Source of the DNA: a virus | Reading direction: 5' to 3' (one strand) | Virus record (IMG/VR): IMGVR_UViG_3300021067_000001 | Coordinates: 1 to 64,000 of that record | Length of the DNA stretch: 64,000 nucleotides | Shown here: in pieces, positions 21,657 to 36,508 of the stretch | Layout: each line of letters begins with the position of its first letter | Numbering within the stretch: position 1 is the stretch's first letter | Made by a program: the position numbers and the translations under genes | The notes under the pieces: generated by a model | The model's database searches: none | Told to the model about the DNA's origin: nothing | The model's input: the letters and a program-made list of their open reading frames with translations, nothing else

Positions 21657-21830
21657 ATGACGCATGAACACACGATTGGATCGCCCGTTGATTTGCAGGC
21701 TTTCCATGGTCACGGCGAGGTAGGCGGTCCGGAACATGACCGTGATTTGCCAAACGCCTGGGAATTGCCGGAGTATGACAATGTAGAGGATTCCTTGGCT
21801 CCCCCGCTGGATGGCGATTTGGAGGACTAA
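21657..21830 (+). CDS. small acidic protein
   Basis: ATG 21657 (the ORF opens at TTG 21645); 57 aa, Asp/Glu-rich. TAATG coupling to the endolysin gene. Confidence 0.4.
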   Translation: MTHEHTIGSPVDLQAFHGHGEVGGPEHDRDLPNAWELPEYDNVEDSLAPPLDGDLED

Positions 21831-22714
21831 TGCCTTTGCTTTTGGTGCAAAAAGGGCATTGTTATAGAACAACCGGGGCTACAGGCACGACCGGTGAACA
21901 GCAATATGCAACGCAGGTTGCAGATGCTTGCGTTCGTTTGCTAGATGGTAAGAACGGTTGGGATGTCAAGGCGGTTCTGGCAGACATTTCTTTGGATTCT
22001 TACCGCGCTGACGCTTTTGCTGCAGTACATTGCGATGGATCTACCAATCCCACCGCGCGGGGATCTTCAGTTGGCTATAAGACTCCTGAAGGACAAAGAC
22101 TTGCGCAAGCCTGGGAGAGAGCTTATGCAGCTCGGGGTTGGCCAATTTTTCGCGATGACAATTACACGGCAGCTTTGAAGAATTACTACGGCGTTAGCAA
22201 TGCAATTTCAGCTGGCTGTCGCCGAGCATTCATCATGGAATGCGGATTCATGACGAATCCTGAAGATCGTCTATTGATGACGGAGCCTGGCGGCGTGGAT
22301 CGCGTCGCCCTGGCGTTGGGCGATGCACTTGGAATCCAAATGGAGGGTGACGTGGCTGAATCGCGGACGGATGTAACGCATGCGTATCGTTGGTGGTCAT
22401 TTCAGAAGGCTGAAGAGCGAATTCCTGCTGCTCATCGAGCTGCTGTTCCAGAGCTTTTCAATCCTCAAGGGCTTGGCGAAGAGTTGCCGATGGTATCGCA
22501 TCTTCTTTCTGAAATGGGAAGAGTTCAGGCCATGGTGCGGATGCAGGAACGCGTTAGCTTTGGTCCTGCGGGAAGAGTGACTGATGAAGGTCGCACAGGT
22601 GAAGTCAATCTACTCGCTCGTAAGTTGAACAAGATGGAAAAGGACATCGAGGAAATCAAGTCAATTCTTCTTGGAAGCGGTGGGCCGCTTCCTGGCGGCA
22701 GAGGGAGCGAGTGA
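21830..22714 (+). CDS. endolysin, N-acetylmuramoyl-L-alanine amidase (Amidase_3-like)
   Basis: AFAAVHCDGS and RRAFIMECGFMTNPEDRLLM fit the His...Glu zinc-amidase pattern. Adjacent to the holin gene. Confidence 0.8.
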   Translation: MPLLLVQKGHCYRTTGATGTTGEQQYATQVADACVRLLDGKNGWDVKAVLADISLDSYRADAFAAVHCDGSTNPTARGSSVGYKTPEGQRLAQAWERAYAARGWPIFRDDNYTAALKNYYGVSNAISAGCRRAFIMECGFMTNPEDRLLMTEPGGVDRVALALGDALGIQMEGDVAESRTDVTHAYRWWSFQKAEERIPAAHRAAVPELFNPQGLGEELPMVSHLLSEMGRVQAMVRMQERVSFGPAGRVTDEGRTGEVNLLARKLNKMEKDIEEIKSILLGSGGPLPGGRGSE

Positions 22715-22715
22715 A

Positions 22716-23195
22716 ATGATAAGCAATAGCGAGCGAATTACAAAGAACTGGGCTGGAAACACTTTTGACAGAGTTTGGCGAACTGGTCTCCAAGTGTTTC
22801 TTGCATATTTGAGTGTCGCTCAACTTTTTCACATGGTTCAATGGATTCCCGCAATTTCCTCTGCACTATTCGCAATGCTTCTTTCCGCGCTTACCAGTTT
22901 GGTTGCGATGCCGAGCTTTGGCGAGGCTTGGTATTTTCAAGTTGCTGAACGGGCAGTCAAGACATTTGCACAGTCTTTGCTGACTTTTATTGGCGCTGCC
23001 GCTGCATTCGATGAAGTTGATTGGAGAATGGGATTTTCCGCTGCAATTGTGGCGACAATCTACAGCGTTGGTACCAGCATCTTGACAACGCGCGTTGGCG
23101 AGCAAATTGCCAAGGGTAACGTTGATCTTACCATTCCAGATTCATATCGTCGTCCTACAGCTGCCAATGGTAGTTCAGGCGGAACGGGATTTTGA
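22716..23195 (+). CDS. holin (r1t/LL-H-like, tentative)
   Basis: ATG 22716. Hydrophobic helices and an ERAVKTFAQSLLTFIG motif. Last gene before a strong terminator. Confidence 0.65.
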   Translation: MISNSERITKNWAGNTFDRVWRTGLQVFLAYLSVAQLFHMVQWIPAISSALFAMLLSALTSLVAMPSFGEAWYFQVAERAVKTFAQSLLTFIGAAAAFDEVDWRMGFSAAIVATIYSVGTSILTTRVGEQIAKGNVDLTIPDSYRRPTAANGSSGGTGF

Positions 23196-23247
23196 AATTC
23201 GCGCATAGGGTAGGATAGAGTTAGCGACCATGCTGGCTCGCAAATTG

Positions 23248-23280
23248 GCCCCAGAGGTATGCAGCAGATACCTCTGGGGC
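23248..23280 (+). terminator. terminator hairpin ending the late (lysis) operon
   Basis: GCCCCAGAGGTAT-gcagcag-ATACCTCTGGGGC gives a 13-bp perfect stem. The downstream U tract is weak (tgattcgtattc). Confidence 0.6.
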
Positions 23281-23389
23281 TGATTCGTATTCGCGCGCTG
23301 GGTGACCTAGACCATCTTCCCTCCCAGGGGAGGTGGTCACCCTCCCTGGTGCAAATGCTACGCATTTGCCAAGGTGCGCGTCTAGGCTA

Positions 23390-23640
23390 CGCTGTACCTT
23401 ATCGCGTATCCGCGCCAGGAACAATCGCGGGGTAAACACATTCGCGCGCAAAAACGCGCGTGTGGCGACGCTGGCGCGATATCGCGCTGGCGCGGCAAAA
23501 CTACGGGCGCATATGCGCGCGCGTAGTATCATCGCGTACTGGCGCGCGAAAACACAATCGCTCGCGTATTTCATGTCTCGCGCGAATCCAGAGGAAGCGC
23601 GCGCGTTCATTTGTTTCTCGCGCGTGGGCGTCACTTTTAC
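23390..23640. repeat. CpG-dense palindrome/iteron-like block
   Basis: Perfect palindromes GCGCGATATCGCGC (23474-23487) and GCGCATATGCGC (23507-23518). CGCGCGcaaaaaCGCGCG at 23443-23460. Recurring CTGGCGCG x3, TCGCGTA x3, TCTCGCGCG x2. About 45 CpG in 240 nt by hand count. Confidence 0.8.
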
Positions 23641-23653
23641 AGATCGTCTTCCA

Positions 23654-23701
23654 CCCCCACCCCCACCCCTACCCCATAACCCCTTCCCCTCCCCCTCCCC
23701 C
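23654..23701. repeat. C-rich tract with eight runs of C4-5 (G-quadruplex/i-motif potential)
   Basis: CCCCCaCCCCCaCCCCtaCCCCataaCCCCttCCCCtCCCCCtCCCCC. The complement carries eight G4-5 runs. Confidence 0.85.
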
Positions 23702-23927
23702 TGCTTCGCGCCCGCGATCCTTATGCGCTTTCGCGCGTCGAGCCGCTAGGCCGAACGGAGTAGCCGCAAGTTACGCCATTCGGGGGATACCGCCGCCCAG
23801 GGGCCGTGGGGTAGCGTTCTCCTCGTTGGGCCGAACGGAGCGGAAGCCCCCGAAAGCCCCTCAAGGCTCCAGGGCCAGCGAGAAGGCGTAAGGCGCGCTC
23901 CAGCCAGGAACCTGCCGAAAGAGAAGC

Positions 23928-23956
23928 TAGACTTTTCCACGCAAGTCGGGTAAGGT
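23928..23956 (+). promoter_or_regulatory. promoter-like element P1 (TAGACT-N17-TAAGGT)
   Basis: cTAGACT, then 17 nt ending in GGG, then TAAGGTAC. The same architecture recurs at 24016 and 35941. Confidence 0.4.
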
Positions 23957-24015
23957 ACGAGTTAGCGCAAGGGTAAGGCCGGCAGAGGCTCCGAGCGCTA
24001 GGGCAAGACCCGGAC

Positions 24016-24044
24016 TAGACGCCCGGGGTAAGGTACGGTAAGGT
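24016..24044 (+). promoter_or_regulatory. promoter-like element P2 (TAGACG-N17-TAAGGT)
   Basis: cTAGACG, then 17 nt, then TAAGGTAC. The spacer contains a tandem copy of GTAAGGTACG (24028-24047). Confidence 0.4.
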
Positions 24045-24049
24045 ACGCG

Positions 24050-24533
24050 GTAGCGGGTCCGACCCCCGCATCGCAGAAGGAGTCGCCACAGCGGCTCGTA
24101 ACGAGGTCACGACAGGGTAACCCCTGAAGGCTGCGGCAGCATCAGCTGCCCGACGCAGCACGCAGGGCTCCGGTGATCACTGTGGATATGTGAATAGAGA
24201 GAGCGCGAGCCATACTCGCCGACGGCCAGTCCAAGATCCTCCGTAGGAGGGGAGACCGCCAGGGAACCGGATTAGCAACCCGGGAAGTCGAGCCGAGCAG
24301 ACGCAGAGGGAACCGGTGCGCACCATCGCAGCCGGAAAACTAGCCAAGAAGGGCGAAAACTCTGCAGGAACCGTAGCGCCGCTGGAAGAGCCGGAGAACC
24401 AGTAATAGGCCGGTAAGTCAGATGCCGCCAAGAGAACCTTAGCTTGTGATCGGCAGCCTACCCCTAGCCATTTAAATCGGCATGGAGTAGGCTGCCCTCC
24501 AGAGGTTAGGGATCAAGAACTTAGGGAGACGAG
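24050..24533 (+). ncRNA. candidate ~480-nt untranslated leader or structured ncRNA (unclassified)
   Basis: No ORF with an RBS. Purine-rich. AGGGAACCGG occurs twice (24261, 24307), with further GGAACC copies. A 10-bp stem GGCAGCCTAC/GTAGGCTGCC spans 24452-24496. Lies downstream of P1/P2. Confidence 0.3.
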
Positions 24534-24701
24534 ATGTTATTTTCGATTATGAACGGAACGTTGAAGGTAGCGGTTCGAGTGTTGCCGCCTAAGGTTGGAG
24601 AGGAAGTTATCGCATTCGTTTTTCCGGAACTTCCTTGGCGCTTCAAGGTAGTTTCGGTGAACGAGAAGGAGCGCACGGCTCACGTGCACCGCATCTACTA
24701 G
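24534..24701 (+). CDS. small hypothetical protein (55 aa)
   Basis: ATG with GGGAGAC RBS. MLFSIMNGTLKVAVRVLPPKVGEEVIAFVFPELPWRFKVVSVNEKERTAHVHRIY. Below the ORF-track cutoff. Confidence 0.5.
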   Translation: MLFSIMNGTLKVAVRVLPPKVGEEVIAFVFPELPWRFKVVSVNEKERTAHVHRIY

Positions 24702-24767
24702 CCGGTCGAAACGCCGCAAGGCGTCGGACGCAAGGCAGCGTCCCTGAAGATGACCTGAGGAGTAGAA

Positions 24768-25208
24768 ATGACCGAGATCACGGCCAACGAGACCACCGCG
24801 ACTGACGCCAAGACCGCGAAGGCCAAGGACTTCACCGCCTACGTCGCCAAGAAGCCGACCAGCCTTCACGAGCACTACGCGGCGTGGATGCTGGAGAAGA
24901 CCGGCCTGGAGCTGAACGTGCAGTCCGATGACGTGACGAAGATCGTGCAGCTGGCCGTCAGCCTCTACCACGACTACCAGGCCAGCCCGGAGAACAAGGC
25001 GCGGCGTGAGGCGGAGCAGGCCAGCAAGCCGGCCAAGACGCCATCCAAGGTCAAGCAGGAGCTGGCCAACAAGGATGCCGAAATCCAGCGCCTGAAGGCT
25101 GAACTGGAGGCTGCGAAGGCGACGCCGGCCAACGGTGCTCCGGCGGCTACGGCTACCGGTGAGGCATCGGCGAAGCCGGTCGGCCGGCGCACCGTCGCCA
25201 AGAAGTGA
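24768..25208 (+). CDS. Ala/Lys/Pro-rich-tailed protein, paralog A (putative nucleoid/DNA-associated)
   Basis: GAGGAG RBS. Conserved core DFTAYVAKKPTSLHEHY..W...KTGLEL...KIVQLAVSLY..YQASPENKARR, then an A/K/E/P low-complexity tail. About 60% identical in the core to 36014..36508. Confidence 0.75.
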   Translation: MTEITANETTATDAKTAKAKDFTAYVAKKPTSLHEHYAAWMLEKTGLELNVQSDDVTKIVQLAVSLYHDYQASPENKARREAEQASKPAKTPSKVKQELANKDAEIQRLKAELEAAKATPANGAPAATATGEASAKPVGRRTVAKK

Positions 25209-27458: not shown

Positions 27459-27492
27459 GGGATCTGTGAACGGCTTTCGCAATTTTGTTGTC

Positions 27493-27612
27493 ATGGCAAT
27501 TCTTTGCATTCTATTAGTTTTCATTCTGAATGCTGCGGGATGCCAATTCAATCCGGTGCCAGATTGCAATCCTCTGGAAGAGGGCTGCGAATGGCGTCCA
27601 TTCGAAGGGTGA
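27493..27612 (+). CDS. 39-aa putative lipoprotein
   Basis: MAILCILLVFILNAAGCQFNPVPDCNPLEEGCEWRPFEG with lipobox LNAAGC. Alternative GTG start at 27466. Confidence 0.45.
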   Translation: MAILCILLVFILNAAGCQFNPVPDCNPLEEGCEWRPFEG

Positions 27613-27619
27613 CCTTGAA

Positions 27620-27886
27620 ATGAGCAGAATTCGCAAGCAGCGTCGCCCCCGTCGGTCGCGTTTCAGCGACGCGCCGTTCGCTGAGCAGCGAGCCAGCAGT
27701 ATGGCTGGACGGGACGGCCAGAGTCGGCGACAGCGCCGGGAGAGCACGAAGTCGCGAATTCGCAACAAGCGCAAGCATGGCAGTCCGGGCCGCGAGAAGC
27801 GGACGCAGAAGCGGATGCCGCTGGCAGCGGGTCTGTCCGTGTTCAGCCCCATCGATCTGGAGACGGGGAAGCCCGTTCAGGAGTGA
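27620..27886 (+). CDS. extremely Arg-rich basic protein (88 aa)
   Basis: MSRIRKQRRPRRSRFSD...QSRRQRRESTKSRIRNKRKHGSPGREKRTQKR. The ATG lies inside track ORF 27530..27886. Confidence 0.5.
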   Translation: MSRIRKQRRPRRSRFSDAPFAEQRASSMAGRDGQSRRQRRESTKSRIRNKRKHGSPGREKRTQKRMPLAAGLSVFSPIDLETGKPVQE

Positions 27887-27982
27887 CTCGCGAGAGGAGG
27901 TGATCGCTGTGGAATTCGATAACCACTGGCGTGACCGCGATCTTTGCTGATAAACGTCGTCTGTGTCGGGGCAGACGACTAA

Positions 27983-28055
27983 GCCTCATTAGCTCAGTGG
28001 ATAGAGCAGCAGCCTTCTAAGCTGCGAGTCGCTGGTTCGAATCCAGCATGGGGCA
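27983..28055 (+). tRNA. tRNA-Arg (anticodon UCU)
   Basis: Full cloverleaf. Acceptor GCCTCAT/ATGGGGC, D arm GCTC-AGTGGATA-GAGC, anticodon arm GCAGC-CTTCTAA-GCTGC, 5-nt variable loop, T arm GCTGG-TTCGAAT-CCAGC, discriminator A. Confidence 0.85.
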
Positions 28056-28086
28056 CGCCAACAATGGCAGATTTAAGGGAGCCAGC

Positions 28087-28377
28087 ATGGGCAATGATTT
28101 CGGACTCGACAGGAAGCGGCGAACGATTCTCAGCGTGGTAGCTGTGATCGCTCTTGGCGGCACCCTGGGTGCATGTACCAGTTACGCCAAGGGCGAGATC
28201 ATCGAAGTGGAGCAGGACCAGGGTGAAAACGGCGCCGTTTTGGAGCTGGAGGTGGTGCGAGATGCTTACGAGGGCACCGGCGCACCGAACAGCTACGAAG
28301 CGGACATCCCTGATGTGCCGGCGAACAATGGTTGCAAGGTTGGCGCAATTTATCCCGACTGCGTCGGCCAGAGGTAA
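28087..28377 (+). CDS. putative lipoprotein
   Basis: ATG 28087 (the track start 28048 would overlap the tRNA). ...ILSVVAVIALGGTLGACTSY lipobox. Confidence 0.6.
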   Translation: MGNDFGLDRKRRTILSVVAVIALGGTLGACTSYAKGEIIEVEQDQGENGAVLELEVVRDAYEGTGAPNSYEADIPDVPANNGCKVGAIYPDCVGQR

Positions 28378-28382
28378 CATCT

Positions 28383-28414
28383 GAAAGGGGCCGGTTTCAA
28401 CCCCGGCCCCTTTC
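28383..28414 (+). terminator. terminator-like hairpin
   Basis: GAAAGGGGCCGG-tttcaacc-CCGGCCCCTTTC gives a 12-bp perfect stem. Confidence 0.6.
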
Positions 28415-28428
28415 GATTGGAGAATTAG

Positions 28429-28707
28429 ATGGACGAGTTCCACAGCAAGTTTAATCCGACAGAACGCGCACATCGCGCGCAGATGCTGCAGATCATATAT
28501 GCTCTCAGCACGGAGCTGAAAAGCGAGCTGAGACATAAGATAAATTTCTTTGCGCATGCCAAGAAGCTTGGTTGGCTGCCAAAGTCCATTCGCATCAAAA
28601 AGCAGGCCTTGCCGTTTCTTGTTGCAGAGGCAACAGAGGGCTTTGGTTATAAACCTGGAACAACTGTCAAGCAAGCCTTGGCGATTTGCAAGAGGGAGGA
28701 GACGTGA
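28429..28707 (+). CDS. hypothetical protein
   Basis: 92-aa ORF with GGAGAA upstream. Confidence 0.5.
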   Translation: MDEFHSKFNPTERAHRAQMLQIIYALSTELKSELRHKINFFAHAKKLGWLPKSIRIKKQALPFLVAEATEGFGYKPGTTVKQALAICKREET

Positions 28708-28886
28708 TGGGCACGCGTGAGGCATTGCAGATGGCCTTGCAATTTCTGAGCGCAGCTTCTTTGACAACAGGAGCAGATGACGCTGCGCAGACCATCAGGA
28801 TGCTACTGGACCAGCGCGGCTGCGGCGAGATTCCTCCGGGCGACCAGACGCTGACCGACGCCATCGACATGGCGGTTTTCGGCTGA
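28707..28886 (+). CDS. hypothetical protein
   Basis: TGATG coupling with AGGGAGGAG RBS (the track start TTG 28686 is less likely). Confidence 0.5.
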   Translation: MGTREALQMALQFLSAASLTTGADDAAQTIRMLLDQRGCGEIPPGDQTLTDAIDMAVFG

Positions 28887-28896
28887 GGAGAAAAGC

Positions 28897-29163
28897 GTGA
28901 CATCGAATGATGAATCCAGGCAATTAGAAGTTAAGGTTTCTGCACTGGAATTGCAGATTCGCGATTTGCAATCTGCGCTGAAAGCGCAGGAGGATGCCTT
29001 TTGTGATCTGGCAAAAAATCTTGAAAGGATGCAGATAAATTTCGCAAATTTTCTGCAGAGCAATTACACCCCATTCGTGATTGCTTTCAATCAGCATGGG
29101 CATCAAGCACCCACAACGGTTGGGTATATGCCCACTAGCAGACCTATCAAGGTCGATGGCTAG
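28897..29163 (+). CDS. hypothetical coiled-coil protein
   Basis: GTG start with GAGGAGAAAAG RBS; 88 aa. Confidence 0.5.
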   Translation: MTSNDESRQLEVKVSALELQIRDLQSALKAQEDAFCDLAKNLERMQINFANFLQSNYTPFVIAFNQHGHQAPTTVGYMPTSRPIKVDG

Positions 29164-31207: not shown

Positions 31208-31212
31208 AATGG

Positions 31213-31301
31213 ATCGCTGTGACCACGGCATGGGGTCAGTTGGTCTGGAGCACCAAGCAGAATGGAGTTTGGTGTGGTTGGTTCGAATCCAACCAGCGAG
31301 C
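31213..31301 (+). tRNA. possible type II tRNA (Ser-like, anticodon GGA) with irregular geometry
   Basis: T arm GTTGG-TTCGAAT-CCAAC. Acceptor ATCGCTG/CAGCGAG with a 1:72 mismatch. D arm GACC...GGTC. Anticodon arm TTGGT-CTGGAGC-ACCAA. 20-nt variable region. Linker lengths are atypical. Confidence 0.4.
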
Positions 31302-31327
31302 GCATTAACACTACTCAGGAGGTAGTC

Positions 31328-31732
31328 ATGAGCAATTTTGAAAACGGTTGGAACATCGAAACTTCCGGGAATCCGAATTGGGATCGGCAATTCGATGCTA
31401 CAGATGCTAGATTGAATGTGCTTCTGCAGCGCGACTTCGAGGTCGTGCGGGATTCACTCAAGAAGCGTGCTGCAGAAGCGTTTGCCAAGGCGCACGAGGA
31501 GTGGACGGCGGAGCAAGAGCAGCTGGCCGGCAAGTACATTTGGATCCGTGCGGAGCAGATTGATGGTCGTACCACGATCTGTGAACAGGGTCACGGGCGC
31601 AAGATCATGCGGTATCGAGTCACCGAGATCCACCCTGCGCGGAGCCGTTTTGACCGCAAGGTTGTGGTAACAGTCGACAAGACAAGGCGCTGGGTTTACG
31701 ATCCCAAGGACCTTGTGATGGTGCTGGCGTGA
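31328..31732 (+). CDS. hypothetical protein
   Basis: ATG 31328 with CAGGAGG RBS (the track start 31262 would overlap the tRNA-like element). Confidence 0.6.
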   Translation: MSNFENGWNIETSGNPNWDRQFDATDARLNVLLQRDFEVVRDSLKKRAAEAFAKAHEEWTAEQEQLAGKYIWIRAEQIDGRTTICEQGHGRKIMRYRVTEIHPARSRFDRKVVVTVDKTRRWVYDPKDLVMVLA

Positions 31733-35940: not shown

Positions 35941-35969
35941 TAGCCATGGCCGGTCGAATAGGGTAAGGT
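35941..35969 (+). promoter_or_regulatory. promoter-like element P3 (TAGCCA-N17-TAAGGT)
   Basis: cTAGCCA, then 17 nt ending in GGG, then TAAGGTAA. Lies about 45 nt upstream of ATG 36014. Same architecture as P1/P2. Confidence 0.45.
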
Positions 35970-36013
35970 AATAAAAGTATCAGGCCAGCATGGTCCCAAA
36001 TTCGAGGAGAAGC

Positions 36014-36508
36014 ATGACTACCACCGAAGCCAACGAGGCTGTCGAGACTCCGGCAGAGGTTGTGCCGACGGAGGAGACGCCCAAGGCTGAGAAGTCCAAG
36101 GGCGAGGATTACACCAAGTACGTGGAGAAGGAGCCGACCAACCTTCACGTCCACTACTGGGACTGGATCAAGTCCAAGACGGGCCTGGAGCTTGCGGTGG
36201 CGGATGACGTTGCCGTCAAGATCGTGCAGATCGCTGTGAGTGCGTACCAGAAGTATCAGGCTTCGCCGGAGAACAAGCAGCGTCGTGTCGATGAGGCCCA
36301 GGCGCGCGAGGAGGCTGTCGAGGCAGCCAAGGCAGAAAAGGCCAAGAAGGCCGCAGCGAAGGCTGCGGAGAAGGCCAAGGCTGCTGAGGATGCCAAGACT
36401 GAGGCTGCTGCTGCCGGTGATGGCGAGGCCGCGAAGCGCCAGCCGCCGCCGCGCAAGGGCGCCAAGGCTTCTGCGACCAAGGCCGCTGCAGGCGAAGCTC
36501 CGTTCTGA
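36014..36508 (+). CDS. Ala/Lys-rich-tailed protein, paralog B (putative nucleoid/DNA-associated)
   Basis: GAGGAGAAGC RBS. Core DYTKYVEKEPTNLHVHY..W...KTGLEL...KIVQIAVSAY..YQASPENKQRR. Tail AAKAEKAKKAAAKAAEKAKAAEDAKTEAAAA resembles histone H1 or actinobacterial HU tails. Confidence 0.75.
   Translation: MTTTEANEAVETPAEVVPTEETPKAEKSKGEDYTKYVEKEPTNLHVHYWDWIKSKTGLELAVADDVAVKIVQIAVSAYQKYQASPENKQRRVDEAQAREEAVEAAKAEKAKKAAAKAAEKAKAAEDAKTEAAAAGDGEAAKRQPPPRKGAKASATKAAAGEAPF

Follow-up and report, generated by a model that had tools for sequence, protein, structure and literature searches.

A conserved, highly structured candidate non-coding RNA between putative early promoters and the first early gene of an actinophage-like siphovirus

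Introduction

In mycobacteriophage L5, and likewise in D29 and StarStuff, a non-coding region of about 500 nucleotides (nt) separates the early lytic promoter, Pleft, from the first early gene (PMC5712189). In L5, the Pleft RNA outnumbers every other transcript during infection; it undergoes processing, is stable, and harms the host as a toxic RNA, its function is unexplained, and about 90% of Pleft transcripts end before gene 89, the first gene (PMC5712189). Similar RNAs are made by Rhodococcus phage WC1 (PMC10986025). To the extent stated in PMC5712189, the L5 RNA has no described pseudoknot or conserved secondary structure. Here we analyze a locus in a 64,000-nt stretch of viral DNA (hereafter the window; positions 1 to 64,000 of IMG/VR virus record IMGVR_UViG_3300021067_000001), in which an earlier note had marked positions 24050-24533 as a candidate long leader or novel non-coding RNA. 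The layout of the locus is of the Pleft type, with promoters at 23928-24046, the RNA at 24047-24511, the first open reading frame (ORF) at 24534, and no conserved ORF in between.

On comparative evidence, positions 24047-24511 are the DNA copy of a conserved, highly structured plus-strand non-coding RNA that was previously uncatalogued. Conservation in 10 phage loci and a covarying plus-strand fold bear out the reading as a leader or non-coding RNA. The core of about 370 nt (24047-24414) comprises a two-tier 5′ hairpin, the long hairpin S3, a multi-helix junction, the hairpins S7 and S9, and a 3′ H-type pseudoknot.

Results

The region is conserved in ten phage loci

Relatives were found through homologues of the adjacent 146-amino-acid (aa) protein on other contigs of 65-67 kilobases (kb), from which the upstream loci were then fetched. 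This gave ten distinct loci, namely the window, L004, L005, L007, L008, L009, L011, L012, L014, and L030. The ten loci keep the gap between the holin gene and the early genes at 65-89% nucleotide identity, with 65-75% over long stretches and 82-96% in some blocks (blastn, MAFFT); the 146-aa protein is only 53-68% identical among the relatives. The best-conserved part of the gap is 24012-24420, and the conserved core ends at about 24414. The earlier note had named lack of conservation as an outcome that would undo its proposal, and the region is in fact kept in all 10 distinct loci. It had also called for a homologue search and a covariation test; with the nine relatives aligned, helices with compensatory changes were found.

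The exact 10-mer repeat that first drew attention, AGGGAACCGG at 24261 and 24307, is present and is the sole repeated 10-mer within the stretch. The estimated chance of one repeated 10-mer in 484 nt is about 0.1, which is unremarkable alone; it is because of cross-phage conservation and covariation, not this repeat, that the signal stands beyond chance. Both copies are equivalently placed in the fold described below: each supplies junction purines and then enters the 5′ strand of a CCGG...CCGG hairpin (S6 and S7). A further short repeat, GGAACC, is exact at 24367, and also at 24263 and 24309, but the copies cited at 24395 and 24434 read AGAACC and lie at 24395 and 24433. The stretch had been called purine-rich. 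The direction of the bias is right (58.9% purine, the 97th percentile among 484-nt segments of the window), but its size is only moderate and the low T content (13%) is the sharper bias.

The predicted fold has two domains and a 3′ pseudoknot

The features of the RNA, all on the plus strand, are as follows.

24047-24074, plus strand: S1, two-tier 5′ hairpin (lower stem 24047-51/24070-74, upper stem 24053-57/24065-69, 7-nt loop UCCGACC)
24080-24097, plus strand: S2, variable hairpin GAGUCGC-CACA-GCGGCUC, from the fold of the window
24106-24177, plus strand: S3, long irregular 70-nt hairpin of four stacked helices and the apical stem GGCAGC-AUCA-GCUGCC
24196-24215, plus strand: invariant purine-rich block AGAGAGAGCGCGAGCCAUAC, which joins the 5′ and 3′ domains
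24215-24297, plus strand: multi-helix junction (J1a 24215-18/24294-97, J1b 24220-23/24287-90) enclosing S5 (24224-24260) and S6 (24267-24283)
24302-24378, plus strand: central region, with hairpin S7 (24313-24335) and the invariant hairpin S9, GCC-AAGAAG-GGC (24343-24354), within ACUAGCC...GGGCGAAAAC
24302-04/24376-78 and 24308-09/24371-72, plus strand: possible long-range helix (candidate)
24381-24414, plus strand: H-type pseudoknot (PKA 24381-85/24399-403, PKB 24390-94/24410-14) with invariant A-rich loops AAGA, AGAA, and AAUAG
24437-24511, plus strand: long terminal hairpin with outer stem CCUUAGCUU.../...AGGUUAGGG, containing the 10-base-pair (bp) stem of the earlier note

The fold thus has at least 10 helices and a pseudoknot. 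The alignment consists of invariant single-stranded blocks between helices of differing, still-pairing sequence, and the invariant core bases lie nearly all in loops and junctions. Over the full element, RNAalifold predicted 65 pairs, 27 of them with compensatory double changes. GNRA-like segments had been noted in the letters, but GNRA loops are not part of the conserved fold, whose loops are CACA, AUCA, GUA, the 7-nt UCCnAnC, and the 9-nt AUUAGCAAC.

In the 5′ domain, S1 is recovered as the same two-tier hairpin in all 10 phages by per-sequence minimum-energy folding (-16 to -28 kcal/mol). Its lower stem takes at least six distinct sequences, all of which pair (GCGGU/AUCGC, GCCU/AGGC, GCUCU/AGAGC, GCCUA/UAGGC, CCGU/ACGG, and ACCGUA/UACGGU). 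At the S2 site the relatives carry hairpins of unrelated sequence (GAGGUCC/GGACCUC, GUAACCU/AGGGUUAC, and CGGCUC/GAGUCG, identified by eye), and insertions of 40-60 nt have enlarged S2 in L004, L007, L009, and L030. S3 pairs in 96.9% of cells, compared with 36-48% in slid controls; 12 of its 16 pairs show compensatory change, and none of 500 shuffles reached the observed covariation score. Between the domains, AGAGAGAGCGCGA and AUAC are identical in all 10 phages, with variation at just two of the positions in between. RNAalifold also predicted pairing of the invariant GGUAAGGUACGC in the P2 region with the invariant GCGCGAGCCAUACC of the AGAGAGAGCGCGAGCCAUAC block; this helix shows no double change and partly conflicts with the lower stem of S1, and it was set aside as unproven.

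In the 3′ domain, J1a and J1b pair in 62-78% of cells in the MAFFT columns, with compensatory change in 5 of 8 pairs; the pairing is better by eye (CUCG/CGAG, CCCUA/UAGGG, and CUCC/GGAG). S5 covaries in the loci that have it, L005 and L009 being without it. The S6 helix forms in 94% of cells, with an invariant UAGC in its 9-nt loop. S7 pairs in 98.6% of cells, with compensatory change in 4 of 7 pairs (CCGG/CCGG, CUGG/CCAG, and CUAG/CUAG; UGC/GCA, UAU/AUA, and UAC/GUA). S9 and the long-range helix are unproven because neither ever varies or covaries. Both pseudoknot helices have two pairs each with compensatory change: PKA pairs in 100% of cells (GCUGG/CCAGU, GCCGC/GCGGU, and GCUGC/GCAGU) and PKB in 94% (GCCGG/CCGGU, GCUGG/CCAGC, CCCGG/CCGGG, and UCCGG/CCGGA), its closing pair being variable. 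The complete 3′ model including the pseudoknot, which was built by hand from the same ten sequences on which it is scored, pairs in 90.4% of cells compared with 27-42% in slid controls. Double changes occur in 19 of its 48 pairs, compared with 0-7 in the controls, and none of 500 shuffles reached its score.

The L030 locus (L030:581-1046) is a mosaic. Its 5′ domain is of the L009 type, including the S2 insertion of about 60 nt, and its 3′ domain is near-identical to that of the window, which therefore points to recombination between the two domains and to their modularity.

The tetranucleotide UAGC occurs six times in the RNA (24051, 24273, 24341, 24374, 24440, and 24465), compared with about 1.4 expected from composition by our estimate. 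Of these copies, the first four are the same in every family member and fall within loops or junctions; UAGC is possibly a repeated protein-binding motif.

The plus strand carries the structure and neither strand a conserved gene

Wobble pairs that can form on the plus strand alone exceed their mirror image in number (54 G·U cells versus 24 A·C cells), and several G·U pairs are invariant. The folding z-score is -3.5 on the plus strand versus -2.3 on the minus strand. Reading frames show no conservation: tblastn scores among the relatives are similar for all six frames, every plus-strand frame of every phage holds 3-13 stop codons (4, 7, and 11 in the three frames of the stretch itself, where frequent stops had been noted), and single-nucleotide indels separate the invariant blocks and break every frame. 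The stretch had been said to hold no ORF supported by a ribosome-binding site on either strand. An 84-aa ORF with a TTG start does exist on the minus strand (24177-24431); it is not conserved, and the long stop-free runs of that strand follow from the purine-rich plus strand. On the similar frame scores, the plus-frame stops, and the indels, a protein-coding gene on either strand was rejected; a conserved translated ORF, which the earlier note had listed as evidence that would count against an RNA, was not found by comparative genomics.

These data bear on the alternative that the locus has no RNA function and instead holds DNA-level signals (a promoter array, regulator sites, or a packaging site) or an unrecognised small protein gene. 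The conserved upstream part, 23740-24046, is promoter-like with little consensus structure, and the stop-free minus-strand runs might suggest a gene. However, more than 30 base pairs with compensatory double substitutions, those of both pseudoknot helices included, are unexpected for signals in duplex DNA, all six frames score alike and are broken by 1-nt indels, and the stop-free runs have the compositional explanation just given. We consider this alternative scarcely credible.

Putative tandem promoters precede the RNA

The earlier note had placed the stretch downstream of two promoters, P1 and P2, and promoter-like sequences are present there, TAGACT-17-TAAGGT at 23928-23956 and TAGACG-17-TAAGGT at 24016-24044.

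23928-23956, plus strand: P1, -35 TAGACT, 17-nt spacer, and -10 TAAGGT after GGG, by pattern match
24016-24046, plus strand: P2, -35 TAGACG, 17-nt spacer, and -10 TAAGGT (24039-24044)

In actinobacterial sigma-A promoters, TAnnnT with a weak -35 element is typical. Across the relatives, the -10 of P1 reads TAAGGT, TAGAGT, TACACT, or TACAGT, so that TAnnnT alone is constant, and TAGAC keeps its 23-nt distance upstream. At P2, a second identical copy of GGTAAGGTAC lies at 24027-24036, 10 nt upstream; all 10 distinct loci (11 aligned rows) share the 20-mer GTAAGGTACGGTAAGGTACG without a change, and TAGAC stands exactly 23 nt before the second TAAGGT in 9 of the 10. The element GGGTAAGGTA is also found upstream of genes at window position 35962, L011:2293, and L015:3042, elsewhere about 50-60 nt before start codons. 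Because the -10 varies while keeping TAnnnT, the TAGAC spacing is constant, and GGGTAAGGTA precedes genes elsewhere, we read P1 and P2 as putative tandem early promoters of the sigma-A type.

Several observations concern related sequences. At 35962-35971 of the window, the promoter-like GGTAAGGTAA, with TAGCCA 17 nt upstream, lies about 20-30 nt before the ORF 35990-36508, which suggests internal promoters of the P1/P2 type in this phage. A candidate third promoter, P0, is seen at 23809-23817 (GGGTAGCGT; the hexamer is TAGCGT, TAACGT, TAGAGT, or TAGATT in relatives), with a hairpin of variable sequence before it and the invariant GGAAGGCGUAAGGCGCGC after it. Between P0 and P1 (23809-23932), RNAalifold found only one invariant 4-bp hairpin as consensus structure; for this near-absence of structure the interval was rejected as part of the core fold and is read as promoters and leader. 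The 20-mer GTAAGGTACGGTAAGGTACG, a tandem of GGTAAGGTAC, also occurs in three otherwise unrelated IMG/VR contigs (L016:5029-5048, L017:5004-5023, and L018:9644-9663), in two of which it adjoins iteron-like GGACATCC / GGAATTTCC repeats. Since about 0.2 chance matches are estimated, the 10-bp GGTAAGGTAC unit may be a wider regulatory or origin-associated DNA motif.

The start of the functional transcript allows two readings. The S1 lower stem covaries from 24047 onward, 3 nt past the -10 of P2, which argues that at least some functional transcripts start upstream of the P2 start site; a P2 start at the usual distance (about 24050-24052) would remove part of this stem. Either P1 (about 23963) or the upstream -10 copy (about 24041) may set the start of the functional RNA. 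Alternatively, P2 transcripts may be made without the S1 lower stem.

A long hairpin lies between the core and the first gene

A linker of about 25 nt separates the core from the long terminal hairpin, which is followed by the first early gene. The 10-bp stem reported earlier is real (GGCAGCCTAC at 24452-24461 pairs with GTAGGCTGCC at 24487-24496) and is the core of the larger hairpin 24437-24511. Downstream of the pseudoknot, a long hairpin (17-31 bp) is present in all 10 phages, with its base YUUAGC / GCUAARG kept and its interior variable; L004 and L030 have compensatory changes in the inner stem (GACAGCCUAC/GUAGGCUGUC). No U-tract was found 3′ of the hairpin. It is a candidate RNase III site or 3′-end-forming hairpin.

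A conserved hairpin between a potential sensor domain and the first gene, together with covarying helices and invariant nucleotides concentrated in the junctions and the A-rich loops of a compact H-type pseudoknot, would fit a riboswitch-like or protein-responsive attenuator. In such a device the pseudoknot and junction would sense a metabolite or an early phage protein and control passage past the long hairpin. However, inspection revealed no alternative or mutually exclusive pairing between sensor and hairpin, the ribosome-binding site is unsequestered and differs between phages, and the hairpin, besides having no U-tract, is far longer than attenuator terminators. Moreover, no Rfam riboswitch class matches, and the core of about 370 nt is several times the typical size of an aptamer. 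An attenuator is therefore improbable in our judgement.

The RNA follows a putative late-operon boundary

The gene order around the RNA is as follows.

21830-22714, plus strand: Amidase_3 lysin gene, after the structural genes
22671-23195, plus strand: r1t-type holin gene, the last gene before the gap
23196-24533: 1.34-kb gap from the holin gene to the early genes, free of credible genes
24534-24701, plus strand: 55-aa ORF (ribosome-binding site GGGAGA), which in the window phage alone is the first gene after the RNA
24768-25208, plus strand: gene for the conserved 146-aa hypothetical protein

The window covers most of a siphovirus genome of about 66.7 kb from a metagenome assembly, and its credible genes all lie on the plus strand. 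The major capsid protein shares 51-59% identity with its counterparts in Gordonia and Mycobacterium phages, with Microbacterium phages also matched, and for this reason we label the virus actinophage-like; it appears to be an uncultivated siphovirus of a small clade. The ENA contig ERZ27257325 k141_711483 encodes a 146-aa protein identical to that of the window in the same surroundings.

Downstream of the RNA, the 55-aa ORF of the earlier note starts at 24534 and has a ribosome-binding site. It is absent from every relative, where the homologue of the 146-aa gene stands directly 3′ of the long hairpin instead; by this comparison, the ORF is an insertion specific to the window phage. Since the window has the 55-aa ORF next and the relatives have the 146-aa gene, the RNA is a module independent of which gene follows. 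The 55-aa ORF matched no Pfam or PHROG family, and Pfam and PHROG searches with the neighbouring early proteins gave no functional clue. Further downstream in the window, an Arg(TCT) transfer RNA (tRNA) gene lies at 27983-28056, inside another gene-poor stretch (about 27460-29080), and a Ser(GGA) tRNA gene at 31212-31303 overlaps the predicted start of the ORF 31262-31732, which is thus probably mis-called.

Three elements occupy the gap upstream of the promoters. Right after the holin stop codon, a conserved element (23208-23285) begins with a promoter-like GGGTAnnnT; a promoter scan gave TTGAAA-18-TAGAGT at 23192-23221. It contains an invariant small hairpin GCGACCAUGCUGGCUCGC (23224-23241) followed by a covarying 12-bp hairpin (23249-23279), and may be a late-operon terminator or a separate small RNA of about 70 nt. 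A CG-rich region (23400-23640) follows, with many short direct and inverted repeats (CGCGCG(A)AAAC, GCGCATATGCGCGC, and others) that are partly conserved. It could hold regulator or terminase binding sites, or lie near a genome end or origin; the L008 and L030 contigs start inside its equivalent. Finally, a 55-nt C-rich tract, CTTCCACCCCCACCCCCACCCCTACCCCATAACCCCTTCCCCTCCCCCTCCCCCT, at 23648-23702 (65% C and 3% G over 23640-23702) is conserved nearly base for base in the relatives. The tract resembles a Rho loading (rut) site that would act on late transcripts reading through, and its complement could form a G-quadruplex. The L007 and L015 contigs begin at or beside it, and it may break assemblies.

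This setting raises the alternative of a cis-acting leader for processive antitermination, in which the RNA, as with the elements put and EAR, would stay on its own RNA polymerase and make it resist terminators and Rho along the co-oriented genes. The RNA lies directly 3′ of the early promoters, all genes of the roughly 66-kb genome are on one strand, and the module is independent of the following gene. The stop module after the last late gene (the covarying hairpin at 23249-23279, then the 55-nt C tract) is also unusually strong, as a terminator-resistant polymerase would need. Against this, put and EAR are much smaller than the core described here, nothing shows terminators inside the early region that need overriding, and further GGGTAAGGTA promoters downstream (window position 35962) mean that a single genome-long transcript is not required. 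We regard antitermination as rather unlikely, yet worth keeping in view.

The same surroundings could suit a replication pre-primer like the RNA II of ColE1, a structured purine-rich transcript of about 500 nt that would form a persistent RNA-DNA hybrid and prime or activate a nearby origin. The size, the strong promoters, and a purine-rich composition that favours R-loops would agree with this, as would the adjoining CG-rich repeat region (23400-23640) and C tract; assemblies also break at or near the repeats (contig starts of L007, L008, L011, L015, and L030). Nevertheless, no AT-rich unwinding element was seen, the GC-skew profile has no switch at the RNA locus, and translated early genes follow directly after the RNA. 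A consensus scan found no sigma-70-like minus-strand promoter of the RNA I type in 24050-24533, a scan that misses actinobacterial promoters like P1 and P2. A pre-primer is, to our mind, very improbable.

Known RNA families do not match

The window was scanned at gathering thresholds with Rfam 15 (4227 models, including riboswitches, 6S/Ms1, tmRNA, RNase P, GOLLD, ROOL, OLE, HEARO, and group I/II introns), and the sole match was the tRNA at 27983-28055. In a permissive scan of 22800-25000, the best matches reached 14-23 bits against thresholds of 50-95, none of them within the conserved core. A blastn search of 23200-24800 against 50,697 GenBank phage records gave no match. In IMG/VR, no relative came up in protein-guided scans based on the 146-aa protein, the holin, and alignment A1, and two conserved RNA motifs had 0 matches; the three contigs with the invariant 20-mer (L016-L018) were rejected as carriers, sharing only the tandem GGTAAGGTAC repeat and no RNA. 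Among GTDB genomes, GTAAGGTACGGTAAGGTAC, a 19-mer version of the invariant promoter repeat, had 0 matches, and the motif AGAGAGAGCGCGARCNATAC had 9, about the chance expectation, none of the 9 with the rest of the RNA. The single weak covariance-model match among these 9 (L022, 18.6 bits) lies inside the uppS coding sequence and was discarded.

The covariance model R1, which covers the 3′ 127 positions only, scores 118-142 bits on the ten members, and nothing else credible matched. A more distant relative, L028, gave a partial match of 11.5 bits that is suggestive and was left out of the family count. Searched against the right end of mycobacteriophage L5 (50500-52297), R1 gave no match at E <= 10. 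Homology to the L5 Pleft RNA was accordingly rejected, given this result and the lack of a blastn match among phages.

Discussion

We propose that the locus encodes a stable early RNA that acts in trans, as for L5. Our confidence in this proposal is about evenly balanced, and that level covers the well-supported structural claim together with the functional one. The early promoters would transcribe the RNA first and in quantity. Being U-poor and purine-rich, with most of its C base-paired, the untranslated RNA should escape Rho. The 5′ hairpin and the long 3′ hairpin would set and protect its ends, through RNase III-type cleavage or termination, and because its ends would be protected a discrete stable RNA of about 450-470 nt would accumulate. 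The conserved junctions would form a pocket or surface for binding a protein, with action either on the host (in trans) or on RNA polymerase (in cis). By analogy, action in trans on a host factor during takeover is most likely, since the abundant, stable, host-toxic Pleft RNA of about 500 nt in L5, D29, and StarStuff occupies the same place.

Several points weigh against this proposal. Transcription start, 3′ end, abundance, and stability are all inferred from sequence. P2 transcripts cannot hold the whole S1 stem, and the functional RNA may come from either promoter. Termination at the long hairpin is doubtful because no U-tract follows it, and cleavage by RNase III is suggested by duplex length only. 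The ten sequences represent only about five lineages, and the pairing counts are cells rather than evolutionary events. A comparison with the phage's own genome gave no more antisense matches than chance would (21 observed versus 20.7 expected). Finally, the analogy with Pleft is one of position and size only, because no similarity of sequence or structure was detected.

A bolder version is that the family represents a new class of large phage RNA with an elaborate fold, comparable to GOLLD, ROOL, OLE, or a ribozyme. Its invariant junctions and pseudoknot would then build a core that is catalytic or organises proteins and that, as infection begins, commandeers a piece of host machinery (RNA polymerase, Rho, a ribonuclease, or the ribosome). 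We consider this possible and on balance doubtful. RNAs this large and complex without an Rfam relative are rare, and such RNAs have often turned out to be ribozymes or scaffolds. If true, the class would be the first structural handle on the enigmatic abundant early non-coding RNAs of actinophages. The function of these very abundant RNAs in L5, D29, Kampy, and WC1 has been a puzzle since the first RNA sequencing, and no conserved structure had been offered to guide experiments. The present family, with the same genomic position, a similar size, and a fold backed by covariation, provides targets for mutagenesis, pull-downs, and structure determination. The locus would also make a clean example of a late-to-early boundary, with a terminator hairpin, a C tract resembling a Rho loading site, a promoter array, and a structured leader predicted to resist Rho.

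Among described phage leaders, the early operon of T7 has promoters A1-A3, the RNase III site R0.3, and gene 0.3, and the N leader of lambda has nutL and an RNase III hairpin. In both, RNase III cuts the hairpin and releases the leader. The present locus resembles them in its tandem strong early promoters, an untranslated leader of several hundred nt, and a long hairpin with imperfect pairing just ahead of the first early gene. One difference is that RNase III cleavage in the window phage is inferred solely from the 17-31 bp duplex. We know of no description of the T7 leader as a conserved, complex-folded RNA, and the lambda leader works through a short nut site and the N protein.

The RNA-only processive antiterminators put (phage HK022, about 70 nt, two stem-loops) and EAR (Bacillus eps operon, about 120 nt) are likewise cis-encoded structured RNAs placed just after the promoter of a long operon, and put is an element of a phage early leader. 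The position of the present RNA fits that of a compact 70-120 nt antiterminator, but in place of two to five helices it has a core of about 370 nt with at least 10 helices and a pseudoknot, and no sequence resemblance.

GOLLD and ROOL occur mainly in other hosts (Firmicutes and others). They are large, ornate bacterial and phage RNAs that are represented in Rfam and have been resolved by cryo-electron microscopy (PMC12286853). Unlike them, the window RNA matches no Rfam model, is smaller, and gives no hint of multimerisation.

The closest counterpart is the Pleft RNA, which is known from transcripts; the window RNA is predicted from sequence. Both belong to actinophages or actinophage-like viruses, extend from an early promoter to the first early gene, measure about 500 nt, and hold no conserved ORF. 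The family described here is best seen as new within a known general type of RNA, the non-coding RNA of phage early leaders, and it has an unusually large and well-supported fold.

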